Translations under genes and position numbers: made by a program
In this document: piece after piece, positions 688 to 25,691 of the stretch
Layout of the letters: every line of letters starts with the position of its first letter
Position numbering within the stretch: position 1 is the first letter of the stretch
Source of the DNA: an uncultured Verrucomicrobiae bacterium
GTDB lineage: Bacteria; Verrucomicrobiota; Verrucomicrobiia; Limisphaerales; JAFGQR01
Direction: 5' to 3'
Length of the DNA stretch: 46,337 bases
Assembly: GCA_963788655.1 (NCBI GenBank)
Contig: CAWBHS010000093.1
Location: 1 to 46,337 of the forward strand
The notes under the pieces: generated by a model
The model's database searches: none
Seen by the model: the letters and a program-made list of their open reading frames with translations, nothing else
What the model was told of the DNA's origin: nothing

Positions 688-3600
688 ATGAACATCACAA
701 AACTTTTCGTTGGGGTTGCGCTTTTGATGACCGCGATGTGCGGCGCGCAAGAGCTGACCGAACCTGGGTGGATCAACACCTTGAAGTGGATCGAGGCCCA
801 GCCCGCAAGCGAAGGCAAGGCCACTTCGATTTCCGCCGAAGGCGCCGGCGGAGTGAGCATGATGGAGGGGGAAGGCGATTCGGCCATTGCCGAAGCGAGT
901 ACCCCGGAGATCGAAGCCTTGGCGCGGGGATTGGTCGCCGGACAAGGCGGACCGGACAATCCAACCGGCGCCAAGCGCATCTTCGATTTCGTGCATGATC
1001 ACATCCGGCATGTGTTCTATTTCGGCTCGAAGAAAGGCGCCCAACTGACGCTCCTGGAGCGGAGCGGCAATGACTTCGACCAGTGCGCGCTGCTCATGGC
1101 CTTGCTGCGGGCCGCCGGCTACCCTGACGCCAACTACCAGTTCGGCCTGCTTCAAATGCCGTATGACCGGGCCGACCACCAGGACCTCCGCCACTGGCTG
1201 CAACTGAGTGTGGTCAACACGAACTGGCCCGCTACGCGCAATTATTTTGGCTATCTCCTGGCCTCACGTGGCTATCCCAATGGCGCGTTCTATTATTTCG
1301 ATGCGACCAATACTCTCGGGTTCCACCGCGTATGGGTGAAACTACCCATTGGCGGGACGAATTACTTGCTCGATCCCGCTTTCAAAGTGAGTGAGCCGAT
1401 TGCGGGCGCCAATCTTCCTTCGGCGATGGGTTTGGACACCAACGCCCTGGTGAGTGTGGCCGGTGGCACCCACACCGCCGACTACGTCCAGAACCTCAAC
1501 GAGCCGGCCTTACGCAACACTCTGGGCAATTACACCAGCAACCTGCTGGTTTCGCTGCAAAACAACCTGCCGAACGCTCGCGTGGTGGAGGTCCTGGGTG
1601 GTTGGGAAATCCAGCCCAGCACGAACCCCGCGTTAAGCCAATCCCTGCTCTTCCCCGGCTACACCGGCAGTGGGTTTGCCTTGATTGAATGGGACCACCA
1701 GCCGACCAACCTGATGGCCCAGTTCACGGTTTCCTTGGCGGGCACCAATCACCACTGGTGGATGCCGGAATTGCAGGGTCAGAGGCTGGCGCTGACGTTT
1801 GATTCCAACGCGCTGGCCGAGCTGTCGCTGGAAGACCAAATGGTGGTGACGAACCAGACCACCGGCAGCAACACGTTGGAGGTCGTGCTCAGTGTGGATC
1901 ACCCGCACGGAACGTGGAGCACGGCAAACAACACGCTGGTGCATACCAATTGGCATGATCACACGCTGACCAATTCCTACGCACGCACCAATGCGAGCTA
2001 CGCGCTGGTCTATGCCTTTGAGCCCAGCCGGGAGGTGCTGCGATACCGGCAGGGCCGGCTCGACGCTTACAAGTCCGCGGGGTTTGATGACGCCTCGCGT
2101 GACGTAGTGACCGAAACTTTGAACGTCATGGGTTTGAGCTATCTGCTTCAGTTCGATCAAGCCGAATTGATGATCGAGCAGCAGCGAGATTTACTGCACC
2201 AAACCCACCACCGGTTTGGTCGCATGGGCCAGGAGAACGGCAAGGGATACTACGGGGACGTTTACATGTATCTCAGCGGGTCGCTGCCGGCCAGCGGGGC
2301 GGGGACCGCCGACTGGACGCGCTGGCAGCAAGGTTATGAGGTGAGCGCCTATTTTGGCAGCGCGCTGGAGCATGGCGTCATCGAGCAATTGCAGTCAAGC
2401 AACCTGCTGGCCGCTTCCACCATGAAAGTGCTCCAACTGGGCAACACCAACTCCCTGAAGACCTTCCTGGCAAGCAGCGCCAACTGGAGCAGTATCCATG
2501 ACCAATTGACGAACTATTATCTGCCCAGCTTGAATAATCTTATCAATGATCATTTCCTCCTCCTGTTGCCGCAAGACGGTTTGATCCGGCTCTCAGACGC
2601 GGGCAGTTGGACCGGTTACGGTATCCTGGGCCGACGCGACTTTCAGGGCGAATACAGCATGAGCATGCTGATTGGGGGCGCCTACTCTGGCGGCTATAGC
2701 GCGTATCCGAATGTCACGGTGAATCCTGATTACGTTCAACAAACCGCGGCCAGCCAGCCCACCTACTTCGATCCCAATGGGGCTTTCAATTCCACTTCCT
2801 CCAGCGCCGAACCCGTCCGGCTCAGCGACGGCGCGTTCGAAGTGGGGACCACCGACCTGGCGCTGGGCCAGGCCGAGCCGCGTGGCTTCAGCTTCCACCG
2901 CTATTACAACTCCGCCCGCCGTCAGCACAACCCGGCCGGCATGGCGGACGGTTGGACCCACAACTATGCGTTCCGGCTGGATGAACTCAGCGCGCCAGCC
3001 GCAGGCTTGGGGGATACCACTCCGGCGCAAATGGCGCCCATGCTCGTGGCCACACGCGCCGCCTTGGAACTCTACAGCACCAATGCCGATCCCAAGAACT
3101 GGCTCCTCACGGCGCTTATCGCCAAATGGGGCGTGGACCAACTTATTAACAACGCGGTGTCCATCACGCTGGGGCAGGATACGGTTCAGTTCATCCGGCA
3201 GCCCGATGGAGTGTTCACCCCGCCGGCCAACTGCACGATGACCCTGGGCCAAGCCGGGGCGAATTACAGCCTGTTCCAACGCCATGGCAACACCCTCCAG
3301 TTCGACGCCAACCAACGGCTCACCAACATCGTTGACCAATACGGCAAGGGCCTGGCGCTGACTTACAACGCCAGCAACTGGGTGGCGACGGCCACCGATT
3401 GGAAGAACCGCACCTTGACGTTGAATTACTCCGGCACGCCGTTGCGCTTGACCTCCATCTCCGATGGGACCCGGACGGTTTCCTACGGTTACAGCACCAC
3501 CTACAATTCCAGCGGCGACTTGACTTCGATAACCGACCCGGAAACCGAGACCAGCACGCTGGTCTATGACACCAACCACCAGATCATCGCCACTGGAGAT

Positions 3601-6600
3601 GCCTTGAGCCAGACGGTGGTCAGCAACCTTTACGACGGGTTTGGCCGGGTGATCGAGCAATATACCCAAGGCGATCCCAACAAAACGTGGCGCTTCTATT
3701 GGTCCGGCTTCGCGAATACCGAGGAAGATCCGACGGGCGCTCAGCGGAGGTTCTTCTATGATCGACAAGGGCCGGGAGATCGGCCAGGAAGACGCGCTGG
3801 GAAACGTTCGTTGGACTCACTACGACGGCCAGGATCACGTCGTTGCGACGGTTTCGCCGTTGAATGAAGAAACCGTCCTCGAATACGATGACCAGCACAA
3901 CCTCGTCAGTTCGACTGATCCGCTGCACCACACCACCACCTACAATTACGACTCCCAGGATCACTTGACGAGTATCGTGGATGCCAACGAGCACTCCACG
4001 CATTTCGCCTACAACGGCAGACATCAATTGACGGCCATCACCAACGCCCTGGGCGATTGGATCACCAATATCTACAACGCGAGCAACGGCACGCTCGAAG
4101 CTCGTCGCGATCCGGTCGGCGAAACCAGCTTTAACTATGACGGCAACGGTTACCTTTACCTCATCACCTATCCCAACAACCTTGGCAGCGAAGGATTCCT
4201 GAACAACGCGTATGGCGACGTGCTGAGCCACACCAACGGGCGCGGTTTCGTCACCAGTTACACCTACAACGATCGCCGTCAACTCACGGCCACCGTGGCG
4301 CCGACCAACCTCACCGTGTCGGTCACCTACGACCCCGTGGGCAACGTGCGGACCAGCACTGATGCACGCGAGTTCACCGCGACCAGTTACTGGAGTCCCA
4401 CGCGCAAGCCGCTGGGAACCGTGCTGCCGGCTACGCTCCAAGGCACGCCCGCCACCACCAACTTTTATGACCTGCGCGACTGGCTGGCACTTTCCAGAAA
4501 CCCGCTGCAATCAGCCATCAGCTACACCAACGATGCGGCTGGTCGGCTCATCGCCTTTACCGATCCAATCGAACGCACAACGCAGTTCGGCTATGATGCC
4601 GTCGGGCGGCAAACCGCCGCAACCAATGCTGCCTTGGAGCAGACGTACCAACAGTGGAGTCCCCGGAGTGAACTTACGCTGTTTACAGACGGGGCAGAGC
4701 ACACAGTCGGGCGAGGCTATGACGCAGCGGGCAATCAGGTTCTGCTGACCAATCGCAATGGCAAAGTCTGGCAGTTACAATTCGACGCCGCCAACCGGCT
4801 GACCCACACGACCAGCCCTTCGAACCGGACGACGATTCAGACGTGGAACAATCGGGGATTACTGCAATCGGTTATCGAGCCAAGCACGCAAACGGCCAAC
4901 TTGTACTATGACGCTCGCGGCCGGCTGACCAATCGCACGGACAGCGTGGGCACAACGTTTTACCGTTACGACGCCAACAATAACGTTACTGCCATCACCG
5001 AGGCGGGCATGACGAACAGTTGGGGCTTCGACGCCTATGACCGCGTGACCGGCTACACCAACGCGGACGGCTACGTGATCGGCTATCGGCACGATGCCAA
5101 TGGCAACCTGACGAGTTTGATCTATCCTGGCAACCGCACCGTCCACTATGCTTACGACAGCCTGAACCGCCTGACCAACGTCACCGATTGGGCGGACCGG
5201 CAAACATCCTTCGAATACGATCTGGCCAGTCGCCTGAAGAAAATCACCCGGCCTAACGGCACGATTCGCGAGATCAATTACGACGACGCCGGGCAAACGA
5301 CGAACATTGTCGAGAAGACCGGGCGCGGGCCTGCCCCTGGCGTACTTCAAGTTGAATTGGAACGACGCGGCCCGGGTGGAATGGGAATTCGCCGCGCCCT
5401 TGCCGCATGCCTACACGCCGCCGACGCGGACGATGACGTATGACGACGACAACCGCATCGCCACGTTCAACGGCAACAATGTGACGTATGACGCTGGATG
5501 GCAACCTGACCTCCGGGCCGGGTACAAACAACACGTTCATCAGCTACACCTACGACGCCCGCAATCGGTTGGTAGGGACGCTTTCCACAGCGTCCGTGAC
5601 TTACCGTTACGATCCGGCAGGGCACCGCACCGCGATCACCAATGGCGCCAGCGTCACCACATTCGTCATCAACCCGAACGCCGCGCTTTCCCAAGTGCTG
5701 ATGCGCATCAAGCCCGGCGTGACGAATTACTACATTTACGGATTGGGCTTGCTGTACGAAATCACCGAAACCGCCTCCAGCACCACGACACTGACGTATC
5801 ACTACGACTACCGCGGCTCGACCATTGCCTTGACCGACGGGACCGGCAACGTTACCGACCGCGCCGAGTATTCAGCCTACGGCAGCCTGACGTACCGGAG
5901 CGGCACTAGCGACACGCCCTTCTGGTTTAACGGGCGTTACGGCGTGCAGACCGATGCCAACGGCCTGCTCTGCATGCGGGCGCGGTATTACAATCCGTAC
6001 CTGTGCCGGTTCCTGAATCCGGACCCATTGGGCTTTGGCGGCGGGTTGAACTGGTACGCCTATGCGGATGGCAATCCCGTGAGTTGCTTGATCCCTTTGG
6101 ATTGGGAACGCAGGAAGCGAATCGGCTTGGTCGAGGGTGGATGTGTACCAATCGGTTGCCTCTTGGGTCGTGCCGGGACAAGTGGCATGGAACAACGCGT
6201 TAGGGTCGGTGCAGCAAGGCAACTATGGGATGGCCGCGGCATATACTGCGCAAATGGTCGGCGAACAATTGTTGTTTGTGGCAACGTTTGGTCAATCCGG
6301 CGCCGCGACGCCAGCGATGCGGACGACACAAATTGTCTCGAGCCGGCTTGAGAATGCCGCCGCAAAGACAGAAGCGACCGTTCTTGGACACTACCCAGCC
6401 TACACGGAAATGGCTGAACAACTCGGCGCACGGCGTTTCAACGTTCCGACCGAGTTTTGGAACAAGATGACGCCGGCTGAACAGTGGACGGCCAACCAAA
6501 AGTTTTTGGACCGAATGATTAGTCGTGGCGACAACGTCATTCTGGCTACGCCGTTGGACAAGGTCAGGCCCGGAAGTTTCTTCGACCGCGAGTTGCAGTA

Positions 6601-6667
6601 TCTGCAAAGCAAGGGCTTCAAACCGAGTGCCGACGGCACAAGGATGATACCGGGAGGAGGGAACTGA
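688..6667 (+). CDS. rhs: Rhs/YD-repeat polymorphic toxin: signal peptide, transglutaminase-like domain, DUF6531-like region, YD repeats, Rhs core, toxin CT1. Split by 4 frameshifts (~3765, ~5325, ~5492, ~6088)
   Basis: RBS GAAGGAGG before ATG 688; ORFs 688-3867, 3758-5443, 5307-, 5488-6351 and 6137-6667 join; GNDFDQCALLMALLRAAG, GWTHNY, many YD repeats, RARYYNP...DPLGFGGGLNWYAYADGNP(V)..DPFGL. Confidence 0.9.
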
Positions 6668-6669
6668 CC

Positions 6670-7089
6670 ATGAGCACGAGTATTCCTCTCAAACAAGAAG
6701 TGACCGAGCAACTGCCGTGGCTTTTTGAAGAGCTTGGCTTTCGCGTTGTCGAAGACCACTTCGACCCAAAGAGCTTCGGCAACTCGTTCGTAACGCTCGG
6801 ATCTCCGGGCTTGCAAGTCCGCTTCGTTCGCGACCGCGGACAAATCTCTGCCGAAGTTGCGTCACGCTCCGAGCCTGGAAAGTGGTGGAATCTGGAGCAC
6901 GTTTGCGAACTCATCGCGGGCCGAAGTATTGAACCCGGATTCGAGTTGTCATCGGTCGCTGCACTCCTGCGAAACAACATGCCTGCGCTCATGGAATCAC
7001 TTGGGCCGAAGTTCCCGGAGACGAAACGCGAGCTTGAGCGGAGAGCAGAGGAAAGGAAGCAGGCGTTTTTAAGGCGCTTCTCTCACTGA
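6670..7089 (+). CDS. Putative immunity protein for Rhs CT1
   Basis: 139 aa ORF starting 2 bp after the toxin stop, RBS GGAGG; standard toxin-immunity position. Confidence 0.7.
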   Translation: MSTSIPLKQEVTEQLPWLFEELGFRVVEDHFDPKSFGNSFVTLGSPGLQVRFVRDRGQISAEVASRSEPGKWWNLEHVCELIAGRSIEPGFELSSVAALLRNNMPALMESLGPKFPETKRELERRAEERKQAFLRRFSH

Positions 7090-7090
7090 A

Positions 7091-7726
7091 ATGAACGCAA
7101 CACTGAAAGTGCTCACGTTAATCTGGCTGGCGCTGGGCGGCGTCTTGGCCTCAGCCGCTCCAAGTGGCGTGTCGGCGACTTTCATTCAGCCCATTACAGA
7201 AGTTGCCACCTTCGACTACGACGCTCTGAATCAAACAAGGATCGTTTACGACGAGGTGTCATTGACCGAATCAATCGGCTACGACGGAGCGTTGATGCCT
7301 TCTACGGCTGCGCCAAGTGTTTGCCGGGAACTTATTGCCACTTTTGCGCCAACCAGCCGACTTCTAGCCGCAAAGAACGTAGTATACCGCGAACTTAGTG
7401 CGGCAGATCGCGCTGCGCTCGAAGCCGGACAGCCACTTGTTCCGAAAGGGACTGGAGGTACAATTCTGGACCACGTTCGAGGAGAAGCAACCGGCCATAT
7501 TTCAGCATCTCGAACCGTTGGGGGGACGGCTCGATTTAATGGCGGGAATGGCCTTGTTGAGATTGATGTAAATGCCGCAACCTCAGGAGGAACACGATTC
7601 ATTCCGCATTCGGAGGTCCTGGAAGGCGTTGGTGCGAGACCTAAACAGATTCAGAAGGTTCTGGAATCCGGTGAAGTCATGTTTGAAGGCCCGATTCCGC
7701 CTAATGCGGTAAGACCAGCCCGATGA
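7091..7726 (+). CDS. Signal-peptide-bearing orphan toxin, putative R-S-E ADP-ribosyltransferase
   Basis: Hydrophobic N-terminus (MNATLKVLTLIWLALGGVLASA); C-domain VYRE...HV...HISAS...ESGEVMFEGPIP matches the R / S-x-S / E layout of ARTs. Confidence 0.65.
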   Translation: MNATLKVLTLIWLALGGVLASAAPSGVSATFIQPITEVATFDYDALNQTRIVYDEVSLTESIGYDGALMPSTAAPSVCRELIATFAPTSRLLAAKNVVYRELSAADRAALEAGQPLVPKGTGGTILDHVRGEATGHISASRTVGGTARFNGGNGLVEIDVNAATSGGTRFIPHSEVLEGVGARPKQIQKVLESGEVMFEGPIPPNAVRPAR

Positions 7727-7734
7727 GGTGAATT

Positions 7735-7992
7735 ATGACGCAATTGAGTAGCTATCCAAATGTATTTAACACGTGCCTTGTGATATTACGGCGAGACGGC
7801 TTTGACTTGGCTTATGACAAGACCACGGATGCCTGGTCAGCGGAGAAAGAAGGATTCTCTTTCCGGGCAGACAATCCAATAGAGCTTCTCGGCCTCGCGG
7901 CCATTTACCAAAAACTACAACCTAAGGAGCAAAGAGAATACTGGTGGAAAATTGATAAACCCAATGTTCTCGCCGAACTCGACCCGAAATGA
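7735..7992 (+). CDS. Putative immunity protein for the 7091-7726 toxin
   Basis: 85 aa, RBS GAGGTG, directly downstream of the toxin. Confidence 0.65.
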   Translation: MTQLSSYPNVFNTCLVILRRDGFDLAYDKTTDAWSAEKEGFSFRADNPIELLGLAAIYQKLQPKEQREYWWKIDKPNVLAELDPK

Positions 7993-7997
7993 ACTTC

Positions 7998-8330
7998 ACA
8001 CGCCAACCATAGAAAGGCCCATGCCAAAAGAAGTAAACGCTGGATCAGCTTCTCAGCTACGAACCCTGCTCAGGCGCAAGAAAGCTCGCCTAGGTCAGAC
8101 TGAACATCCCAATGCCCAGCCGGCCTCGTGGCACTGTCCTGGTTCACCCCATGAGATGTCTTGGTCCCACGGTGAAGCTGTCGGTCAGGTCCTTCATAGT
8201 GGCCGGCCCGGAGACCACCAAAGCCCTGCTATCTCACGGGGTAAACCCAAGGACGTGGTTTTGCGAGTCTGTTTCACCTCAGCACGCCCGGTTCGCTTTC
8301 AGTCAGGGATGCGACCGTTCCAGCTATGTT
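7998..8330. repeat. Inter-cassette repeat: ~96 bp unit A plus ~87 bp block B
   Basis: Unit A 7998-8092 (ACACGCCAACCATAG...AGCTTCTCaGCTACGAAC...AAAGCTCGCCTA); block B 8244-8330; both recur at 13534-13882. Confidence 0.8.
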
Positions 8331-8348
8331 GGCGCTTTGGATAAGCCC

Positions 8349-10451
8349 ATGAAGCGCCGGCTTCAATTCGCTTTGTTCCTGCTGCTGGCGGTGTCGGCCT
8401 TTGGCCATACGTCGGAGCGGACGTTGTTTCTTTATCTTGACGCCGCCAATCGGCTGACGAATATCACCACGCCACTGAGCCGGGTCACCTCCCAAGGCTG
8501 GAACAATCGCGGCCTGTTGCAGACCGTCATCGAACCCAGCACGAACACCGCCAATTTCTATTACGACGCCCGTGGCCGCCCGACCAACCGCACCGATGGG
8601 GTGGGCACAACATACTACCGCTACGACGCGAACAATAACCTCAGCACGGTCAGCGAGGGAACGCGGACCAACACCTGGGGCTTTGACGCCTACGACCGTG
8701 TGACGGCCTTTACCAACGCCGACGGTTCCGTGATCCGCTACGGTTACGACGCCAATGGCAACGTGACCGGCCTGACCTATCCTGGCAACCGCACCGTCCA
8801 CTATGCTTACGACAGCCTCAACCGGCTTACGAACGTGACGGATTGGGCGGATCGGCAAACGTCCTTCGAGTATGACCTGGCCAGCCGCCTGAAGAAAATC
8901 ATCCGGCCCAACGGCACGGTTCGCGAAATCAACTACGACGACGCCGGGCAGACGACGAGCATTGTCGAGAAGACGGGCGGGGGCCTGCCCCTCGCGTACT
9001 TCAAGTTGAATTGGAATGACGCGGCCCGGGTGGAATGGGAATTCGCCGCGCCCTTGCCGCATGCCTATACCCCGCCAACGCGGACGATGACCTACGACGA
9101 CGACAACCGTATCGCCACGTTCAACGGCAACAATGTGACGTATGACCTGGATGGCAACCTGACCTCTGGGCCTGGGACAAACAACACGTTCATCAGCTAT
9201 ACCTACGACGCCCGCAATCGGTTGGTAGGGACGCTTTCCACAGCGTCCGTGACTTACGGATACGATCCAGCGGGCAATCGCGTCGGGTTGACCAATGGCG
9301 CCAACGTCACGCGCTTCGTCATCAATCCGAACGCCGCCCTTTCCCAGGTGCTGATGCGCATCAACACCGGCGTGACGAATTACTACATTTACGGACTGGG
9401 CCTGCTGTACGAAGTCACCGAAACCGCCTCCAGCACTACGACGCTGACGTATCACTACGACTACCGCGGCTCCACCATTGCCTTGACTGACGGCACCGGC
9501 AACGTGACCGACCGCATCGAATACAGCGCCTACGGCACGACCACGTATCGCATGGGCACCGCCGACACGCCCTTCCTGTTCAACGGGCGTTACGGCGTCA
9601 CGACGGATCCCAACGGCCTGCTTTACCTGCGGGCGAGATACTACAACCCGTATCTGTGCTGTTTCCTGAACCCCGACCCGATTGGCTTCTCCGGTGGATT
9701 AAACTTTTACGCCTACGCCGACGGGAATCCGATCAGCCTCATTGACCCGTTCGGGTTGTATGGAAATCCAGTTTCCGGATCTGATGGCCCGGTTGGACCG
9801 TCCAGTCCTTACGCGCCAGGGGGAGCGTTCTACGTTCCGACGCCGCTGCCGCCACCTGGACCGGTAGCCTATTTCGTTGGCGGCGCAGTTGTCGGTGCAG
9901 GCGTCGCTGCTGCGGTTGTTTTTGCTGCGCCAGTTGCGGTGTCGGGTTTGGTTGCAGTGGGAGTGCCGGCAACCACGGCGAGTGCAGCCGTTACGACAGG
10001 AGTCGGCGTTGCAGCAGTTGGTGGCGCTGTGGCGACGGGTGTGAACACTTACAATGCTGTGCAGGCAAACGACTGGAATGCAGTCGCCTTCAATGCCGGC
10101 GGCGTTGTCGGAGGCTTGGCAGTTGGAGTAGGCGGTGGCGGACGAGCAATGGCCGAAGGCATCATGGGGAGGCCGAGTCCCGCTCCCAACACATGGAATC
10201 CGATCACGGTTGCGCAATACGAATGGTCAGCCCGGCTTCGACTGGATTATCCCGATGGCAGCATCCCAGCGTGGATGGCGAGCGCACCAACTCCAGCCAG
10301 CGGAGGTGCATCTGCCGCGTTCACAGCGGGCGGTGTAGGCTCATTCCTCCCGACATTTGGAACGCCGAACAGCCAGCAATCGCAAGGCAGTTGGATTACT
10401 CCATCCTTTAGCTTTGGCTCATCCGGCCAGTCATCATCCACTGGGAAATAG
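8349..10451 (+). CDS. Orphan Rhs cassette 2: signal peptide, C-terminal Rhs core, hydrophobic Gly/Ala/Val-rich CT (possibly membrane-acting)
   Basis: MKRRLQFALFLLLAVSAFG then DAANRLT...DPFGL highly similar to main rhs 4781-6104; CT has long hydrophobic stretches. Confidence 0.85.
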   Translation: MKRRLQFALFLLLAVSAFGHTSERTLFLYLDAANRLTNITTPLSRVTSQGWNNRGLLQTVIEPSTNTANFYYDARGRPTNRTDGVGTTYYRYDANNNLSTVSEGTRTNTWGFDAYDRVTAFTNADGSVIRYGYDANGNVTGLTYPGNRTVHYAYDSLNRLTNVTDWADRQTSFEYDLASRLKKIIRPNGTVREINYDDAGQTTSIVEKTGGGLPLAYFKLNWNDAARVEWEFAAPLPHAYTPPTRTMTYDDDNRIATFNGNNVTYDLDGNLTSGPGTNNTFISYTYDARNRLVGTLSTASVTYGYDPAGNRVGLTNGANVTRFVINPNAALSQVLMRINTGVTNYYIYGLGLLYEVTETASSTTTLTYHYDYRGSTIALTDGTGNVTDRIEYSAYGTTTYRMGTADTPFLFNGRYGVTTDPNGLLYLRARYYNPYLCCFLNPDPIGFSGGLNFYAYADGNPISLIDPFGLYGNPVSGSDGPVGPSSPYAPGGAFYVPTPLPPPGPVAYFVGGAVVGAGVAAAVVFAAPVAVSGLVAVGVPATTASAAVTTGVGVAAVGGAVATGVNTYNAVQANDWNAVAFNAGGVVGGLAVGVGGGGRAMAEGIMGRPSPAPNTWNPITVAQYEWSARLRLDYPDGSIPAWMASAPTPASGGASAAFTAGGVGSFLPTFGTPNSQQSQGSWITPSFSFGSSGQSSSTGK

Positions 10452-10453
10452 GT

Positions 10454-10909
10454 ATGGAAAAGACCGAAGCCTTTCGCTTGATTACCCACCAGCTTCGCCG
10501 TGGTGTGATTCTGTTCAAACTTTTACAGTTTGCTTCAATGATAGGCGGTGGAGTGGCGTTGATTTTTCCCGTTGGACGACCTTGGGCACTTGCCGCTTTT
10601 GTGGGCGCTATCCTGTTCGGGGTCGCCTGGGTTCACATCCGGGCAATGTATCTTTCGGCTTGGAGGGCGTGCGAAAATCCGCAGATGGTTTACTGGGCAC
10701 ATCCGACAACCAGGGGCGGGCATGTTTTGGAACAGCCAACAGATGATTGCAGACGCCTCGTGCTGCACCTTCGGGATGGAACGCAGTTTGAGTTCGGCCT
10801 TCCCACGTCGGAGATGAGCAAGTTCATCGCTTGGTTGAACGAGCGAAACCCATCGGTGCGATGGGGGGCTTACGACAAAGTTGAAGCGAAACAAACTCAA
10901 GGGGCATGA
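10454..10909 (+). CDS. Putative membrane immunity protein (2 TM segments)
   Basis: Starts 2 bp after the toxin stop; hydrophobic segments FASMIGGGVALIF and WALAAFVGAILFGVAWV. Confidence 0.65.
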   Translation: MEKTEAFRLITHQLRRGVILFKLLQFASMIGGGVALIFPVGRPWALAAFVGAILFGVAWVHIRAMYLSAWRACENPQMVYWAHPTTRGGHVLEQPTDDCRRLVLHLRDGTQFEFGLPTSEMSKFIAWLNERNPSVRWGAYDKVEAKQTQGA

Positions 10910-11162
10910 CCCAACCCAACACCGCTTGTCCCGCAAAATCCCAACCCGCTCGCGCACTGAACGCCCTGACCGCTCGCAGCCCCGCGCCGTCAGGCCGGCT
11001 GCGAAAATCCAAGGCCAGCCGTTCTGCCGTCGCGGGCCTGCTCGCTCCAGGCAAAATGAGTCTGCCCGTGGCGTCGTCCGTCAACAGTATTGGCAAGTCG
11101 CTTGCCATCGGAATTAAGTTGGCATCACGGGACGTTGGTTGGACACTAGGCGGACTATTGGG

Positions 11163-13214
11163 ATGAAACCGCTGCTTCAATTGAGCTTGCTCTTACTGGC
11201 AGTGCCGGCTTTTGGCCATACGCCGCAACGGACGCTATTTCTCTATTTCGACGCCGCCAATCGGCTGACGAATACCACCACGCCGCTGAGCCGGGTCACC
11301 TCCCAAGGCTGGAACAATCGGGGCCGGTTGCAGACGGTCATCGAACCCAGCACGAACACTGCCAATTTCTATTACGACGCCCGCAGCCGCCTGACCAACC
11401 GCACCGATGGGGCGGGCACCACGTACTACCGCTACGACGCGAACAACAACCTCACCACCGTCAGCGAGGGGACGCAGACCAACACCTGGGGCTTTGACGC
11501 GTACGACCGCGTGACCGCTTTCACCAACGCCGATGGCTACGTGATCCGCTACGGCTACGACGCCAACGGCAACGTGACCGGCCTGACCTATCCTGGCAAC
11601 CGCACCGTCCACTATGCTTACGACAGCCTGAACCGCCTGACCAACGTGACCGATTGGGCGGATCGGCAAACATCCTTCGAATACGATCTGGCGAGCCGCC
11701 TGAAGAAAATCATCCGGCCCAACGGCACGGTTCGCGAAATCAACTACGACGACGCCGGGCAGACGACGAGCATTGTCGAGAAGACGGGCGGGGGCCTGCC
11801 CCTCGCGTACTTCAAGTTGAATTGGAATGACGCGGCGCGGGTGCAATGGGAATTCGCCGCGCCTTTTCCCCACACCTACACCCCGCCGAGGCGGACCATG
11901 ACCTACGACGACGACAACCGCATCGCCACGTTCAATGGCAACAATGTGACGTACGACGCGGATGGCAACCTGACCTCCGGGCCTGGGACAAACAACACGT
12001 TCATCAGCTATACCTACGACGCCCGCAATCGGCTGGTAGGGACGCTTTCCACAGCGTCCGTGACTTACGGATACGATCCAGCGGGCAATCGCGTCGGGTT
12101 GACCAATGGCGCCAGCGTCACGACGTTCGTCGTCAATCCAAACGCCGGGCTCTCCCAGGTCTTCATGCGCATCAAGTCCGGGGTGACGAATTACTACGTT
12201 TACGGACTGGGCCTGCTGTACGAAGTCACCGAAACCGCCTCCAGCACTACGACGCTGACGTATCACTACGACTACCGCGGCTCGACCATCGCCTTAACTG
12301 ACGGCAGCGGCAACGTCACCGACCGCGCCGAATATTCGGCCTACGGCAGCCTGACGTACCGGAGCGGCACAAGCGAGACGCCCTTCTGGTTCAATGGGCG
12401 TTACGGCGTACAGACCGACCCCAACGGCCTGCTTCACATGCGGGCGCGGTATTACAATCCTTACCTGTGTCGCTTTATCAATCCAGACCCGTCCGGGTTC
12501 GCCGGTGGACTGAATTGGTACGCCTTTGCCGACGGGAATCCCATCAGCCTGATTGATCCGTTTGGCTTGGGCGCTGTGGAGTCAGGCGGCTACTCCTGGC
12601 TCATGACCCCCAGCAGTATTGGGGGTTGGGCGGCGGACCAATTGATCAACCTTGGGATTGGAACCGTGTCGATGGCGTCATGGGCACTGGGCGTAGGTTT
12701 TGAAATGATCGGAGCACCGCCAGGACATCTCTATCAGCAGGCGGACACGCTCAACGCGAGCATGTCGCCGTTTGGTCGAGCGGGCTATTACGACACCCAA
12801 AACTCGGTCAATCAAGCTGCTGCTGCGACGGTGGCCTTGGCAACCATGAGGCCCACCTCAGTCGCAAGAGGAGGAATGACTCCGTTGTATCGGGCCGTCG
12901 CTCCGGGAGAACTGGCTGACCTGAGCGCAAACGCTGGTGCGTTCAGGAATCCGCTGGGCATCGAACGAAAATACTTCTCCGAAACTGCCGAAGGCGCGGC
13001 GTCATATGCTCGGCAAGCCCACCAGGCGGGAGGAAGCTTGTATCAAGGGCCATACACCATCGTAAGAACCGAAATTCCAACGGACCTCATCACGCCGATC
13101 TTGCGGGCCACGCCGGACCGAGGAATCCCGACCGTCACTGTGCCGACAGAATTGCTCCCGCGCCTCACACCGGCCCAACAACTGTCAGCCACGCCATTGC
13201 CAAGGAAACCATGA
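11163..13214 (+). CDS. Orphan Rhs cassette 3: signal peptide, C-terminal Rhs core, putative ART-like toxin CT
   Basis: MKPLLQLSLLLLAVPAFG, FDAANRLT...DPFGL; CT LYRAVAPGEL...KYFSET...YTIVRTEIP. Confidence 0.85.
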   Translation: MKPLLQLSLLLLAVPAFGHTPQRTLFLYFDAANRLTNTTTPLSRVTSQGWNNRGRLQTVIEPSTNTANFYYDARSRLTNRTDGAGTTYYRYDANNNLTTVSEGTQTNTWGFDAYDRVTAFTNADGYVIRYGYDANGNVTGLTYPGNRTVHYAYDSLNRLTNVTDWADRQTSFEYDLASRLKKIIRPNGTVREINYDDAGQTTSIVEKTGGGLPLAYFKLNWNDAARVQWEFAAPFPHTYTPPRRTMTYDDDNRIATFNGNNVTYDADGNLTSGPGTNNTFISYTYDARNRLVGTLSTASVTYGYDPAGNRVGLTNGASVTTFVVNPNAGLSQVFMRIKSGVTNYYVYGLGLLYEVTETASSTTTLTYHYDYRGSTIALTDGSGNVTDRAEYSAYGSLTYRSGTSETPFWFNGRYGVQTDPNGLLHMRARYYNPYLCRFINPDPSGFAGGLNWYAFADGNPISLIDPFGLGAVESGGYSWLMTPSSIGGWAADQLINLGIGTVSMASWALGVGFEMIGAPPGHLYQQADTLNASMSPFGRAGYYDTQNSVNQAAAATVALATMRPTSVARGGMTPLYRAVAPGELADLSANAGAFRNPLGIERKYFSETAEGAASYARQAHQAGGSLYQGPYTIVRTEIPTDLITPILRATPDRGIPTVTVPTELLPRLTPAQQLSATPLPRKP

Positions 13215-13519
13215 CCATGAAAGGCCAACCCGACATCATCGCAAAAGTGCGGCTCTACGCGACCGAAGCCGGCGGCCGCAAAGGCGCAACCCCATCGGAA
13301 ACGTTCGGATGCCTATTCGAGTTTGAAGGTGAAAAGTTTGACTGTCGGTTGCTTCTGCAAGAAGTCGGGTTTCTTGCGCCAGGAGCGACCGCAAAAGTCC
13401 CAGTCGCGTTCCTTTATCCGGAGTTGATTAAGCCACGGCTGAAGGTCGGAAGTCGATTCACGCTTTGGGAAGCGCCGACGATTGGCGAAGGGGTTGTTGA
13501 AGAAATCGTGTCCGGCTGA
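13211..13519 (+). CDS. Putative immunity protein resembling EF-Tu domain III
   Basis: ATGA overlap with the toxin stop; AKVRLYATEAGGR...LAPG...YP...GSRFTLWEAPTIGEGVVEEI aligns by eye with EF-Tu EVYILSKDEGGR...VMPG...HP...[21 protein letters not shown]. Confidence 0.75.
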   Translation: MTMKGQPDIIAKVRLYATEAGGRKGATPSETFGCLFEFEGEKFDCRLLLQEVGFLAPGATAKVPVAFLYPELIKPRLKVGSRFTLWEAPTIGEGVVEEIVSG

Positions 13520-13533
13520 AGAAAATGAACTTT

Positions 13534-13882
13534 ACACGCCAACCATAGCACACAAATGGCCAATGGAATTTGAACGCTGGAAGAGCTTCTCGGCTACGAA
13601 CGCGCGCTCGACGCGAAGCAAAGCTCGCCTACATCAAACTAAACTCGACACGCCAACCATAGCACCCGCGTTGCCAATGCATTTTAGACGCCGGCCCAGC
13701 TTCTCGGCTACGAACACTTCTCGACGTGAAGCAAAGCTCGCCTACGTCTCACCGAACAGCCAAACGCCCTGCCCGCCTCGTGGCGCTGTCCCGGTCAACC
13801 CAAGAACGTGGTTTCGCGAGTCTGTTTCACCTCAGCACGCCCGGTTCGCTTTCGGTTATGGCTGCGACCATTCCGGCTATGT
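13534..13882. repeat. Second inter-cassette repeat: two tandem unit A (13534-13631, 13648-13744) plus block B (13797-13882)
   Basis: Direct sequence similarity to 7998-8330; 114 bp period between the tandem units. Confidence 0.8.
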
Positions 13883-14174
13883 CGAATGTTTCCTGCCAGG
13901 CATACGGTTCTCAGTCAATCCCGGCCCAACGCAAGCATTCGGTTCACGGCTCGGTATTCAACACACGGGCTACCCATATCCAGCGCTGTCCTCGCCGACC
14001 TCGGGAACTGATTGCCGACCCCAAGTCCTTCCTGCTGACGCCTCGGAGACAAGCACTCAAACAAAGAAGCAAATGTTGACGCTGGGTTGCAGGTTGCAGG
14101 GGCTTAAAAGTTTTTGCTTGGCAAATGACGGGTGGCTGATAATTAAGGGACAGTTCTTTGAGTTTGAGTTCAGT

Positions 14175-14325
14175 TGCAGCCAAATGACTGGGAACCCCGT
14201 GAGAATCGGGGACGGTTTGCGCCACTGTAACGGGTTACGAGCTCCCACCAGGCCACTGGCCGGGAAACCGCCGGGAAGGCGGGAGCAAGGATAAGCCCCA
14301 AGTCAGGATACCGGTTTGGCTGTGC
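14175..14325 (+). promoter_or_regulatory. Cobalamin (B12) riboswitch
   Basis: GGGAA-CCCCGTGAGAATCGGGG-ACGG...GCCACTGTAA...GCCACTGG...CCGGGAAGG...AAGTCAGGATACC; closing stem CAGCCAAA / TTTGGCTG. Confidence 0.9.
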
Positions 14326-14418
14326 TCGTCGCGGTCCCGCCCACGCGGGATCGGCTTCTCCGTCAAAGAGAAGGATGAGACCAGCCCGTCCTGCGGGTGC
14401 AGGATGGAACCGTTGATG

Positions 14419-14462
14419 GCCTTCATTCACCGCTTTGCCGGAGTCTGAAGGTTTTTTATTTT
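14419..14462 (+). terminator. Putative intrinsic terminator (riboswitch expression platform)
   Basis: GCCTTCA...TGAAGGT stem followed by a T-rich tract, between the aptamer and ATG 14523. Confidence 0.55.
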
Positions 14463-14522
14463 CAGTCTCCGCCTGGTCTCGCAATCCCAAACGTTTGCTT
14501 GTCGAGAATAGAAAGACCAGAT

Positions 14523-15503
14523 ATGCGGCCCGTTATTTTACTTTGCCCCCTGTTGGCGTTTTGCCCATTGATCCCGGCGATTTGCGTTGGAGCAGCGACT
14601 TTCCAGTCGGATTTCTCCACCGATCCCACCCCGCAAGGTTGGCGTGCGCAGGGCGATCCTTCCCTGTTCCATTGGAATGCCACCGATCAGCTTTTGGAAG
14701 TCACCTGGGATTCCTCGCGCGGCAATACCTATTTTTACCATCCGCTGAGAACCATCCTTTCCCGGCAGGACGACTTCCGCCTGAGTTTCGACGTGCGCCT
14801 TGATGATCTTGCAATCGGCACCACGCCGGACAAACCATACACGTTTGAATTGGCCATTGGTTTTCTGAATTTTGACCAGGCCACCAACACTGGGTTTCTC
14901 CGCGGTTCCGGTACGGATTCGCCCAATTTGGTGGAGTTCGACTATTTTCCGGATTCGGGATTTGGCGCGACGATTTCGCCGACCATGATCTCGAGCAACA
15001 TGGAATTCGTTAGCAGTTTCAATTACCCGGTCGAGCTGACATTGCACGAGTGGTTTCATGTGGAGATGAGTTACGCGGCCAGCAACCAGACGTTGATGAG
15101 CAGGCTCACGCACAATGGGGAGGAATTCGCTTCGTTGGAAGACGCGGTGGTCGGAACCGACTTTTCCGATTTCCGTCTCGATACGGTCGCGGTGATCAGT
15201 TACAGCGACGGCGGACAGGATCCCATGTTTGCCGGTTCGGTGCTGGCCCACGGCGTGGTGGACAACTTCCAAGTGATGGTGCCCGAACCGCCCATAGCCA
15301 ATCTGACTGGCGGTATCGCCGATGATCGTTGGCAAGTGCAATTCGACAGCCAGACCAACTGGATCTACCACTTGGAAGCCACCACCAATTTCTTCGAATG
15401 GTCTTCCGTGAACACCGCATCGGGAACGGGCGGTCCTTTGACGATGCGGGACGATCAAACCGCCGGCGCGCACTTTTACCGGGTGCGGGCTGACAAACCA
15501 TGA
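14523..15503 (+). CDS. Secreted hypothetical protein with Verrucomicrobia-type C-terminal 'FYRV' domain; B12-regulated
   Basis: Signal peptide [13 protein letters not shown]...; beta-rich body; ends [12 protein letters not shown]...HFYRVRA. Confidence 0.75.
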
Positions 15504-16321
15504 CGGATCATTGGACAACCCGATCGCTGCTTCGCGCGGAACCGGCCCACGCACTTCCGTGTGTGACCGGCCGAGCATCGGGGACGCGACTCCAGACAAG
15601 TGCCTTCACGCTGATCGAACTATTGGTGGTGATCGCGATCCTGGCGATCCTGGCGGCGCTGCTGTTGCCCGCGCTGGCGCAGTGCAAGGCGGCGTCCCAG
15701 CGAGTCAAGTGCCTCAGCAATCTGCGCCAATTGTCGTTTGCGGCGCAAATGTATTGGGATGAAAACGAGAGCCGGGCATTTCGATACCGCGGCGCGTACA
15801 CCAATGGCGGCGATGTTTTCTGGTTCGGTTGGCTGGAACGTTGGCATTCGGGTAATGAAGGCCGGCGCGCGTTTGATGCCGCGGCCGGGCCGCTTTATCC
15901 CTACTTGCGCGGACGGGGCATCGAGCTGTGCCCAGCGCTCAATTATTCGCAGCCTGAGTTCAAGGCCAAAGCCAACGCGGCGGCGTACGGGTACGGGATC
16001 AATTTGCACCTCACCGCACCGTCGTTGGCCAGCCTCAATCGGGTGCGGCAACCGTCGGGCGTGGTGGCGTTCGCGGACGCGGCCCAGGTGAACACGTTCC
16101 AAGCACCCGCCTCGCCCGCGCATCCGATGCTCGAAGAATTCTACTACGTCAGCACCAACTCCTACGAAGCCACCGCGCATTTCCGGCATCAGCATCAAGC
16201 CAACACGGTGTTTGTGGATGGCCACGTGGACCGGGAACCGCCGGCGCCGGGTTCGCTTGACGCGCGCATGCCTCAAGTATGGGTGGGCCGGTTGCCACCG
16301 GAACTCTTGCACATTCCGTGA
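15500..16321 (+). CDS. Prepilin-type N-terminal cleavage/methylation protein with H-X9-DG motif (DUF1559-like)
   Basis: [54 protein letters not shown] overlap with the upstream gene. Confidence 0.9.
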
Positions 16322-23662: not shown

Positions 23663-24649
23663 TCACCACACCCGTCCGGAACGGTCCTGCGGCGGACGGG
23701 ATTCTTTGAAGCCCATGGGCAACTTGCGATTGCCGTCCAACATCATGGCCTCCAGCAACCGCGCGGCTTCCTCGGGCGTCAGCCACAATTTGCGGCCATC
23801 GCGGGGCTTGGCCTCTTTCTCGCCGGGCTTTGGCTCCTTGGGTTCGTCGGCGTCCTCGTCCTCTTCGTCGCCTTCACATTGTTGCTTGAGACTTTCGGGC
23901 AGAAGATCCTTCAATTGCTTCATCTTCTTCTTCAGATCGCTTTTCTTTTCGCCCATGGATTGCATGCACATTTGCAGCGCCTCCTGCCGGTCAATCAACT
24001 TGGCCAGGTTGCGATCCACTACTTCAGCATTGAATTGCGCGTCGTCGTATTTCCCGCGCAATTCCTGGGCGCTCTTAAAATCACCCGAGGCCCGTTGCCA
24101 TCGGCTGATCACCGCCCCGTAGGATTCGAGGGCCTGCTTGACGGCTTCCATGGCGGTCTTGAGTTGCTTGCGCGCGCCGCGCCCATGCATGTAGGCCGCG
24201 ACGATGGCATTGAGATCGTAGCCCGCCAGCGCCTCGTCCGCGGCTTGTAAGGCCGAATCCGCCGCGGCGTCGGCCATGGCCCCGTGCGCGTTCGCCGCCG
24301 TTCCGTCGGGCGCATCCTTGAGCACTTCCGCGCCTTGCTGAAAACGCACCTGCCCCAGGTTGTAGAGGGCAACAGGTTGCACGGTCTCGCGGTTGCGGGC
24401 GACGGCGGTCTGGAGGGCCAGTTCGGCGTCGCGCAATTTTCCCTCCCGCAACTTCTGAGTGCCTTCATTGTAAAGGGCACGGGAACTCTGGGAATCATCC
24501 TCGTCCCATAAGGCCGCCGAAGCGCTGACTCCGACCAGCAAGGCCATGGCCATTCCGATCCAACTGCCGCGCCCGCGCCGCACGGTCCATCCGGTGGGCG
24601 CCGGCACCGTCCCGGCGTTCCTGACATGATTTCGTTGCGTCGTTTGCAT
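23663..24649 (-). CDS. batC: TPR protein (BatC-like)
   Basis: ALYNEG/ALYNLG TPR motifs, DAQFN, acidic linker, LTPEEAARLLEA, terminal W. Confidence 0.7.
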   Translation of the reverse strand: MQTTQRNHVRNAGTVPAPTGWTVRRGRGSWIGMAMALLVGVSASAALWDEDDSQSSRALYNEGTQKLREGKLRDAELALQTAVARNRETVQPVALYNLGQVRFQQGAEVLKDAPDGTAANAHGAMADAAADSALQAADEALAGYDLNAIVAAYMHGRGARKQLKTAMEAVKQALESYGAVISRWQRASGDFKSAQELRGKYDDAQFNAEVVDRNLAKLIDRQEALQMCMQSMGEKKSDLKKKMKQLKDLLPESLKQQCEGDEEDEDADEPKEPKPGEKEAKPRDGRKLWLTPEEAARLLEAMMLDGNRKLPMGFKESRPPQDRSGRVW

Positions 24650-24652
24650 AAG

Positions 24653-25684
24653 TTACGTCTGCCTACTTTCGCTCACTCTCCGCCGCGTGCCAATCAAAGA
24701 TTCCAACACCAGCAGCAGGATCACCGCCGCAATGGGCAAATGGAAGCGGTCCACGCCCAATTTGCGCACTTTCGCGCCGCCCGGCAAATCGGTGGACGTC
24801 TCCACCAACAGCCGCACCCGGCTCATGCCTTCCCCGAGCGCGCCGAGCGGAAGATACTTTCCGTGGGTGGTATCGGCAATCTTGCGCAAAGTCGTTTCGT
24901 CCAGGCGGCTGACCACCACCTGGCCTTTGGCATCGCGTAACGGGGCACTGAGCCCCTGCGGCGTCCTATAAGTCACCACGCTGCCCGCCGGGGTGCCGAC
25001 GCCGACTGTAAATACCACCACGCCCTTTTCCGCCAGCTTGTTCGCGGTTTCGACCCCGGCTTTTTCCAAGTCTTCGCCGTCGGTCAGGAGCACCATGATT
25101 TTGCGGCGGTCATTCTTTTGCATCGCACCGAAACCTTCGTCCAGCGCGCGGCCAATGTCCGTGCCGAGGACCGGGATGGTCCGCTGATCGACGGCCATCA
25201 AGGCTTCGCGAAAGGCATCGTAGTCAAACGTCAGCGGGCACTGCAAAAAGGCGTCGCCGGAAAAGGCGACCAAGCCGACGCGTCCGCGTCCGTAGCGCTG
25301 CACGAAATCCAGAATGGCGAGTTGGGCCCGGCTCAATCGATTCGGCCGCACGTCCGTGGCGGTCATGCTGCGCGAACAATCCAGCAGGAACAGAATGTCA
25401 TCGCCGAGGGCCCGGGAAACCTCCGCCCGTTGACCCCATTGCGGCCGGGCCAACGCGAGGGACAATCCCGTTACCGCCAGCAACAACAAGCCCAGCTTCA
25501 CCAATCGCCGCGCCGGACTGTGCGAACGCAGCAGGTCGCCCAGCAGCTCGGGCGCGGCAAACTGCGCGATCTGCTTCCGCCGGGCCCACCGGGCGAAGGC
25601 GAACAGCGCCACCACCCCCAACGGCGCCAGCGCCGCCAGCCAGAGCCATTCGGGTTCCGCAAAATGGGGATGGGAAAAGTCCAT
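24653..25684 (-). CDS. batB: VWA-domain membrane protein BatB
   Basis: LARPQWG, MIDAS DCSRSM, PLTFD, LTDGED. Confidence 0.88.
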   Translation of the reverse strand: MDFSHPHFAEPEWLWLAALAPLGVVALFAFARWARRKQIAQFAAPELLGDLLRSHSPARRLVKLGLLLLAVTGLSLALARPQWGQRAEVSRALGDDILFLLDCSRSMTATDVRPNRLSRAQLAILDFVQRYGRGRVGLVAFSGDAFLQCPLTFDYDAFREALMAVDQRTIPVLGTDIGRALDEGFGAMQKNDRRKIMVLLTDGEDLEKAGVETANKLAEKGVVVFTVGVGTPAGSVVTYRTPQGLSAPLRDAKGQVVVSRLDETTLRKIADTTHGKYLPLGALGEGMSRVRLLVETSTDLPGGAKVRKLGVDRFHLPIAAVILLLVLESLIGTRRRVSESRQT

Positions 25685-25691
25685 TACATTC

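Follow-up and report, generated by a model that had tools for sequence, protein, structure and literature searches.

In a 46,337-nucleotide (nt) contig of an uncultured Verrucomicrobiae bacterium (CAWBHS010000093.1, assembly GCA_963788655.1; the whole contig is called the window below), the third of three Rhs cassettes consists of an Rhs gene and, at its 3' end, a small open reading frame (ORF) that encodes a free-standing homologue of domain III of the translation elongation factor EF-Tu. Both ORFs, of 691 and 102 amino acids, had been named in a preliminary description of this DNA made from the letters alone, and both are present in the ORF list as given there. The best overall explanation, which we consider quite likely, is that cassette 3 encodes a toxin of the ADP-ribosyltransferase (ART) type at the C-terminus of its Rhs protein, together with a cognate immunity protein of EF-Tu ancestry. 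As a type the system is known, and pairs of an Rhs toxin with an immunity protein are common; what is unusual is that the origin of the immunity protein can be traced, and that it leads to domain III of the essential EF-Tu, and the toxin family itself is without a model in the libraries searched. As to why an immunity protein should descend from EF-Tu, we tentatively favor the answer that the toxin recognizes EF-Tu domain III and that the immunity protein is a decoy or pseudo-substrate, an answer that, judged from the sequences, is possible rather than probable.

Over its whole length, the product of the small ORF is homologous to domain III of bacterial EF-Tu. This was the central claim of the preliminary description, which had also stressed the absence of a G domain, and it is borne out by BLASTP, by profile comparisons, by matches of relatives to the Pfam domain and by a shuffling control. 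In a direct BLASTP comparison with Escherichia coli K-12 TufB, residues 2–101 align with TufB residues 298–394 (29 identities in 107 positions, 27%; E = 4e-4 for this single comparison), and the alignment recovers the motif pairs noted earlier. Relatives of the protein were collected (55 at E ≤ 0.01 among 59 candidates, 74–164 amino acids long, all unnamed or "hypothetical"), and the window protein was aligned with 52 of them in alignment A1 (53 rows; the window's own entry P0001 and the short rows P0017 and P0053 were left out). With the A1 profile, 54 distinct PDB sequences were retrieved at E ≤ 10, every one of them an EF-Tu; the best match has E = 5.6e-4, 10 fall below 0.01, and positions 9–101 of the profile align with residues 306–395. 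Comparison of the same profile with TufB by hhalign gave E = 4.7e-4 over residues 304–394. The Pfam model of the domain (PF03143, GTP_EFTU_D3) is matched at E ≤ 1 by 24 of the 53 A1 members, with a best E of 6.3e-6. The window protein is not among them and has no match to this model even at E ≤ 10; the homologue at the locus L009 reaches 21.8 bits, below the Pfam gathering threshold of 27 bits. As a control for chance, TufB domain III scored 20.4 bits against the profile, compared to 8.9 bits for the best of 3000 shuffles, none of which reached the real score, and TufB domains I and II scored –1.1 and 0.5 bits. Taken as single sequences, neither the immunity protein nor the toxin domain described below has a match in Pfam, NCBIfam or the PDB; the lone PDB row, an alanyl-tRNA synthetase at E = 0.51, was set aside as a chance match.

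The structure model agrees with these comparisons. The AlphaFold2 model of the immunity protein (predicted local distance difference test score, pLDDT, 90.5; predicted TM-score, pTM, 0.81) superposes on EF-Tu domain III at TM 0.77–0.82, as a structural check proposed in the preliminary description had anticipated: the top matches listed by Foldseek against the PDB are all EF-Tu over domain III, with query TM-scores (TMq) of 0.75–0.82 and a best E of 3e-6. The two share a β-barrel fold, homology across the domain and the motifs GGR, PG and G-x-RF…E…T-x-G-x-G-V-V. In EF-Tu, domain III sits C-terminal to the GTPase domain and domain II, whereas the immunity protein stands alone; it has 100–102 amino acids and no G domain, its 55 homologues have 74–164, and no longer or fused forms were found in a search that is weak evidence on this point. 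Unlike EF-Tu, the immunity protein has a four-residue insertion (K74-P-R76-L77) that folds as a short helix in the model (residues 70–76), an invariant FDC motif and a second conserved cysteine, C34.

The coupling of the small gene to the Rhs gene is tight from either of two starts (–4 to +2 nt). The ATG at 13211 overlaps the Rhs stop codon (TGA, 13212–13214) to form the ATGA reported in the preliminary description. An alternative ATG at 13217 lies 2 nt past the Rhs stop; because AAGGAAA lies 10 nt upstream of it, and because 42 of the 53 family members start there, it is probably the true start, with a 100-amino-acid product, a correction that leaves the coupling in place.

The conserved residues that the immunity family shares with TufB are G21, G22, R23, F38, L49, P57-G58, P70, G80, F83, E87, G94 and V96. 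Near the C-terminus, E87 (49 of 53 members) and T90 (a threonine in 44 of 53) align with the E378...T382 loop of EF-Tu. T90 corresponds to TufB T383, that is, Thr382 in mature numbering, which we take to be the residue of this domain III loop that is phosphorylated by the toxin Doc. At the other end of the domain, R23 is present in 51 of 53 members and a basic residue follows at position 24 in 42 of 53; R23/K24 align with EF-Tu R318/H319, which contact the tRNA T-loop (PMC9071432). Retention of R23/K24 and of E87/T90 speaks for the reading in which the toxin acts on EF-Tu domain III and the immunity protein is a decoy.

The C-terminal toxin domain (CT) of the Rhs protein belongs to a family that is widespread and lacks a Pfam model. 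A search with the translation of 12801–13211 against 1.84 billion cluster representatives found 471 with E ≤ 1e-3, of which 261 reach E ≤ 1e-10, which define it as a toxin domain of broad distribution. Among the 150 matches listed, the domain occurs once per protein, in carriers of 87–3294 amino acids, and in 149 of them no more than 15 residues separate its end from the C-terminus. A Pfam scan of 35 of these 150 carriers detected RHS_repeat in 18 of the 26 long ones and no family over the CT in any of the 35. The window CT was aligned with 64 of the listed matches, the shorter ones (alignment A2, 65 rows); the conserved residues are R11, E17, E35, K37, Y38, F39, D86 and G88, with R11, K37 and Y38 each present in 64 of 65 rows, E17 in 63 and F39 in all 65. 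The start of the CT, quoted in the preliminary description as LYRAV..E...KYFS, is present and is the most conserved part of the family. In a model built from A2 (pLDDT 88.4), R11 lies on strand 1, E17 six residues later on helix 1, while K37-Y38-F39 belong to strand 2 and D86 precedes the last strand; R11, Y38/F39 and D86, each conserved in at least 62 of 65 rows, are candidate positions of the ART catalytic triad, which lies on strands 1, 2 and 5 (R-S/T-E, H-Y-E/D or H-H-h).

The preliminary description had called the first strand of the CT ART-like, and the fold matches of the CT are consistent with an ART, if weak and below significance against solved structures. Among the 42 PDB rows listed by Foldseek for the CT model, 35 are ART-type enzymes by description, namely Tpt1/KptA, CC0527, TreTu, RES toxins, ParT, RhsP2, Tne2, diphtheria and cholera toxins and TreX; RES toxins, Tne2 and APE0204 were placed in the ART superfamily partly on our own assumption. 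Against BFVD one match falls at E ≤ 1e-3 (4.9e-4), and a phage "ADP-ribosyltransferase" follows at 2.4e-3. Look-alikes in the Atlas, which are leads only, include a Tox-ART-HYD1 cluster (0.90) and a TreTu_C cluster (0.88), and Planctomycetota are the commonest taxa of the CT cluster there. At the level of family models, ART-PolyVal is matched by three of the 65 A2 members (best E 0.057), and TreTu_C (PF24691) and Tox-ART-HYD1 (PF15633) have no match in the window CT or in the 65 A2 members at E ≤ 10. On the evidence of the predicted fold, the CT is probably a minimal ART. A comparison of the CT profile with PDB sequences returned a sole match, TrmBL2 at E ≥ 0.1, which was discarded as chance.

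The CT and the EF-Tu-like protein are found together elsewhere. Homologues of the immunity gene were located at 15 loci, 13 from a scan of genome contigs with A1 and two from plasmids, and all six-frame ORFs around them were searched with a hidden Markov model (HMM) of the CT. The immunity homologue is immediately preceded by a full CT in Pyrinomonadaceae (L001), Solimonas (L003), Acetobacteraceae (L005), Dyella (L008) and Duganella (L010), and by a CT fragment in Beijerinckiaceae (L006); in all, a CT adjoins the homologue at six of the 15 loci, distributed over Acidobacteriota and Alpha-, Beta- and Gammaproteobacteria, with an intergenic spacing of –4 to +13 nt. At one further locus (L007), 190 nt of upstream sequence are too little to judge. 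In 15 comparisons among six complete pairs, the identities of CT and immunity protein are correlated (r = 0.95), the comparisons being phylogenetically non-independent. Because the CT lies directly upstream in six of 15 loci from several phyla, with co-varying identities, the sequence data support the view that the CT and the EF-Tu-like protein are a cognate toxin-immunity pair.

Individual loci add detail to this picture. In the Duganella metagenome-assembled genome (L010, 1772–2442) the CT is a free ORF of 108 amino acids without an Rhs carrier that overlaps the immunity gene by ATGA, and the pair is organized like a toxin-antitoxin module. In Solimonas (L003, 4528–5198) a second, divergent CT (HMM E 1.5e-9) is followed by a protein of 98–101 amino acids from another family; an alignment of the 98-residue protein with 18 relatives (A3) matches A1 over its full length, at profile level only (hhalign E = 3.7e-5, with a probability of 71%), and this second pair suggests, as far as sequence comparison goes, a wider superfamily of toxin-immunity pairings. 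In Dyella (L008, 4491–4667) the immunity profile has another, short match (E 0.014, '…GGTLWEGRDVAKGEIV'), which lies about 200 nt past the immunity gene and may be a decayed extra copy. The L009 homologue adjoins a SUKH/SMI1-like ORF and a HigBA-like pair, both named by eye from the translations, a setting that resembles an immunity island. A tblastn search of plasmids found the immunity homologue, 42–43% identical, unannotated and without an upstream CT, on two Variovorax replicons, and found no CT; the same search of phages gave no match for either protein. In PADLOC and PHROGs nothing scored below E 0.039 for the CT, the immunity protein or the Duganella and Solimonas pairs.

The Rhs protein that carries the CT matches Pfam RHS_repeat (PF05593, 3e-35, in seven stretches) and the NCBIfam models YD_repeat_2x (TIGR01643, 8.5e-22) and Rhs_assc_core (TIGR03696, 2.2e-19, residues 399–477). 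Its match to RHS_core (NF041261), 108 bits against a cut-off of 2000, covers part of the 1261-position model, and the protein is a short, partial shell. The Rhs-associated core ends at a DPFGL of the PxxxxDPxGL type, where the toxin is presumably cleaved off. The linker that follows lies outside the conserved toxin domain, since homologues align only from about residue 20–28 of the 12801–13211 query. A repeat search of the window located an Rhs core of about 1.1 kb, 85–95% identical, at 5011–5795 in the main rhs, 8376–9448 in cassette 2 and 11187–12259 in cassette 3; each of the three copies precedes its own distinct C-terminus and small ORF, and the C-termini differ after the common core. Cassette 3 is one unit, the third, of an Rhs polymorphic-toxin array. 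Both short cassettes have signal-peptide-like leaders fused straight to mid-shell Rhs repeats (ORFs at 8112, MKRRLQFALFLLLAVSAFG, and at 11139, MKPLLQLSLLLLAVPAFG), and the possession of leaders of their own is unusual among "orphan" rhs fragments.

If these elements are assembled into a mechanism, the Rhs shell would release the CT into a target cell, where a domain of minimal ART-type fold would probably carry out an NAD+-dependent modification of a component of the translation machinery, and in the producer cell the EF-Tu-like protein would neutralize it as the cognate immunity protein by 1:1 binding. EF-Tu domain III would be recognized by the toxin as substrate or docking site, so that a duplicated domain III fragment (the 3' end of tuf) would have come with an affinity for the toxin; the FDC motif and the K74-P-R76-L77 helix insertion could later have sharpened the fragment into a tight pseudo-substrate inhibitor. 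The EF-Tu ancestry of the immunity protein hints that the toxin acts on EF-Tu, and a prior affinity of the toxin for domain III would account for it best. The full proposition, that an ART toxin docks on or modifies EF-Tu domain III and that a piece of this same target was domesticated as its immunity protein and co-diversified with the toxin across phyla, we regard as somewhat doubtful.

EF-Tu has a place in the biology of several other toxins. Doc is a Fic-fold kinase of EF-Tu Thr382 with Phd as its antitoxin, and Tse6 is an antibacterial toxin linked to EF-Tu; to our knowledge, neither these two nor CdiA-CT EC869/NC101 have an immunity protein derived from EF-Tu. A parallel to the decoy interpretation is offered by poxvirus K3L, a homologue of the S1 domain of eIF2-alpha and a pseudo-substrate of PKR, where a free single domain of a translation factor presumably binds its attacker in the same manner; it differs in being a viral defense against a host kinase and not part of a bacterial toxin-immunity pair, and no homology is implied.

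The preliminary description had pointed to EF-Tu as target or partner of toxins elsewhere; TreTu modifies EF-Tu D21 (PMC9825190) and CdiA-CTs bind domain II (PMC9071432). TreTu and its immunity protein TriTu, of Salmonella Rhs1 (PDB 7ZHL, 7ZHM; PF24691, PF24689), resemble the present pair in several respects: TreTu is an Rhs C-terminal toxin of about 113 amino acids with a minimal ART fold, its immunity gene lies directly downstream, the two proteins bind 1:1 and the toxin's target is EF-Tu (PMC9825190). Moreover, an arginine on strand 1 of TreTu is followed six residues on, in helix 1, by an essential glutamate (R6/E12; PMC9825190), and R11 and E17 of the CT have the same spacing. The residue modified by TreTu, D21, belongs to the P-loop in domain I and not to domain III, and TriTu is described in the same text as a flat five-stranded sheet with two helices, unlike the EF-Tu-like barrel of our immunity protein (PMC9825190). 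A relationship of TriTu to the immunity protein was considered and ruled out, on this difference in described fold (PMC9825190) and on the weak match of PF24689 to one of 53 family members at E 0.18. Tox-ART-HYD1, which is paired with Imm-My6CBD in the catalog of Zhang et al. (2012; PMC3482391), is likewise a small ART-fold polymorphic-toxin domain on RHS proteins, and its signature H,[RK],[FY],[DE] resembles K37, Y38/F39 and D86 of the CT; the first signature residue is histidine in place of the arginine of the CT, and the immunity family (My6CBD) differs. Published accounts further describe CdiA-CT EC869/NC101 as tRNases of BECR fold that are activated by EF-Tu, bind its domain II and have immunity proteins unrelated to EF-Tu (PMC9071432), and TreThr, an Rhs ART of similar size, as an enzyme that modifies charged tRNA-Thr and whose cleft is blocked by a helix of its immunity protein (PMC13617354). 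Structurally, TreTu (7zhm_A) is among the top Foldseek matches of the CT (probability 0.94, E 0.061, TMq 0.40, 10% identity); its catalytic H31 and W68 have no evident equivalents in the CT, which conserves K37-Y38-F39 and D86 instead.

Several observations weigh against the account favored here. Among the 34 columns conserved to at least 90% in the immunity family, 13 are identical to E. coli EF-Tu and 21 differ; the invariant D44, C45, K74, R76 and L77 are specific to the immunity family, R76 and L77 lying in the insertion without EF-Tu counterpart. At eight of the 15 loci (L002, L004, L009, L011, L012, L013, L015 and L016) no CT was found upstream, so that the linkage of homologues to this CT family, which the preliminary description had expected, stands for six loci and fails for eight, L007 being unjudged; the CT-less homologues may be orphan immunity genes or members of a family with other roles. 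The A3 profile finds no EF-Tu in the PDB, the detectable similarity to EF-Tu having been lost in this distant sister family. On the toxin side, no Pfam ART model matches the window CT at E ≤ 10, and against solved structures the CT model has no Foldseek match at E ≤ 1e-3, the best reaching E 0.038 with TMq values of 0.37–0.57. Small Rhs ART domains hit varied targets, reportedly including rRNA or NAD. They also include EF-Tu domain I and charged tRNA-Thr (PMC9825190, PMC13617354), and the sites on EF-Tu used by the precedent toxins lie in domain I (D21 for TreTu; PMC9825190) and domain II (CdiA-CTs; PMC9071432). Finally, a Pfam scan of the 691-residue Rhs ORF found no N-terminal trafficking domain (PAAR, FIX and the like), and being short and without a known trafficking domain, the ORF may be an unexpressed orphan module.

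Many of the same facts speak for an alternative that we regard as plausible, though short of probable, in which the pair is genuine and the EF-Tu ancestry is uninformative on the target. A stable β-barrel, perhaps taken from an already free-standing domain III-like family, would have been recruited and given a new toxin-binding surface, and the toxin would modify RNA, NAD(P)+ or another protein. The invariant positions just listed, together with L85, have no identical EF-Tu counterpart, with 13 of 34 columns matching; homologues occur without a CT; A3 pairs with a related CT yet gives no EF-Tu signal in the PDB; and ART-fold Rhs toxins of similar size hit different targets (PMC13617354, PMC9825190). 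Unnamed Atlas clusters of 102–107 amino acids from several phyla, with 315, 76, 68 and 55 members, are look-alikes of the immunity protein and leads only. On the other side, the recruitment of a fragment of an essential housekeeping protein is far easier to explain if toxin binding came first, most family members retain R23/K24 and E87/T90, which correspond to functional surface residues of EF-Tu domain III, and TreTu, the single solved Rhs toxin with EF-Tu as a known target, is among the nearest look-alikes of the CT in structure and features, if weakly so.

Unlikely, in our view, is an orphan cassette 3 that is silent or in decay, with a small ORF that is a functionless relic in this genome. 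The short ORF with its 108 bits against the RHS_core cut-off of 2000 would fit this, as would the main rhs upstream, which is broken over several frames in the assembly, and a search of 10800–14500 that found no sigma-70-like promoter, a weak test for this organism. Yet both ORFs are intact and retain their conserved residues, a start codon and a signal-peptide-like N-terminus belong to the cassette itself, and orphan cassettes are known to serve as a reservoir for recombination with the main rhs (PMC13617354); expression or silence would in any case leave the identity of the pair unchanged. Very improbable is protection on the target side, in which the immunity protein, rather than binding the toxin, would shield or replace something there, for instance by binding the tRNA T-arm or EF-Ts or by competing with damaged EF-Tu: the retained residues aligned with the T-loop contacts R318/H319 would suit it, but 100 residues that lack domains I and II can hardly substitute for EF-Tu, pair-specific co-divergence and translational coupling are what direct binders typically show, and the immunity proteins of characterized ART Rhs toxins occlude the toxin (PMC9825190, PMC13617354).

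A full-text literature search, which left supplements and subscription journals uncovered, found no description of an EF-Tu-like or EF-Tu-derived immunity protein, and neither "EF-Tu" nor "elongation factor" occurs in the first 300,000 of the 357,715 characters of the polymorphic-toxin catalog of Zhang et al. (2012). No model in Pfam, NCBIfam, PADLOC or PHROGs covers the CT or the immunity protein. If the decoy interpretation is true, the protein would be the first substrate-derived immunity protein of a polymorphic toxin within the literature searched, and its sequence would point to the binding site of the toxin on EF-Tu. Ancestry that reflects the target would mean that the target of a toxin can be predicted by rule from its immunity protein, and would add a case of pseudo-substrate immunity in bacteria and a new way of attacking EF-Tu; ancestry uninformative on the target would still leave a pair that shows the conversion of a housekeeping domain into an inhibitor.

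Table 1. Features of cassette 3 and of the remainder of the window (positions in the window)
Feature	Position	Strand	Remarks
Rhs ORF of cassette 3	11139..13214	+	691 amino acids from TTG; YD/RHS repeats and Rhs-associated core
In-frame ATG of this ORF	11163	+	starts signal-peptide-like MKPLLQLSLLLLAVPAFG
DPFGL, end of Rhs-associated core (PxxxxDPxGL-type boundary)	12555..12569	+	translation …NPISLIDPFGLGAVESGG…; TIGR03696 match stops at residue 477
Variable linker from core to toxin domain	12570..12860	+	Gly/hydrophobic stretch GGWAADQLINLGIGTVSMASWALGVGFEMIGAPPG; outside conserved domain
C-terminal toxin domain	12861..13211	+	about 110 amino acids; family without Pfam model; predicted minimal ART-like α/β fold
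Immunity gene, stand-alone EF-Tu domain III homologue	13211..13519	+	102 amino acids from ATG 13211, or 100 from ATG 13217
Main rhs, upstream	688-6667	+	several overlapping frames: 688..3867, 3758..5443, 5307..5909, 5488..6351, 6137..6667
ORF of 211 amino acids	7091..7726	+	signal-peptide-like start; 'VVYRELSAADRAALEAG…ISAS' stretch; no family
Small ORF after 7091..7726	7735..7992	+	no family
Rhs ORF of cassette 2	8112..10451	+	long Gly/Ala/Val-rich hydrophobic C-terminus
ORF of 151 amino acids, 2 nt after cassette 2 Rhs ORF	10454..10909	+	predicted membrane character; weak HdeD-like match, E 0.011
Repeated intergenic elements 3' of the cassette 3 pair	13522..13882	+	recur at 7987-8329, upstream of cassette 2
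Cobalamin riboswitch (RF00174)	14149-14333	+	80.2 bits, E 4.1e-19, full-length model
ORF of 368 amino acids just 3' of the riboswitch	14397..15503	+	without Pfam family
Protein with prepilin-type N-terminal methylation motif (PF07963)	15500-16321	+	
BatA/BatB-like operon with von Willebrand factor A domains (VWA)	23663-26732	-	

The rest of the window is summarized in Table 1. The main rhs carries a transglutaminase-like core, DUF6531 and RHS repeats, and its split frames reflect either frameshifts, as in a pseudogene, or assembly errors. No family was found for its C-terminal domain (in 6137..6667) or for the next ORF (6670..7089). The ORF at 7091..7726, which contains 'VVYRELS…', was considered as a relative of the cassette 3 toxin and ruled out, as it has no match to the toxin-domain HMM. 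The hydrophobic C-terminus of cassette 2 and the 151-residue ORF behind it look like a different, possibly membrane-acting, toxin-immunity pair. The prepilin-type protein and the BatA/BatB-like operon, taken with the Atlas taxa of the toxin cluster, hint at a source of Planctomycetota or Verrucomicrobiota type. The intergenic repeats fall into families D5–D8, with 73–90% identity and an internal 114-nt tandem at 13522/13636, and may mark the boundaries of a cassette duplication.

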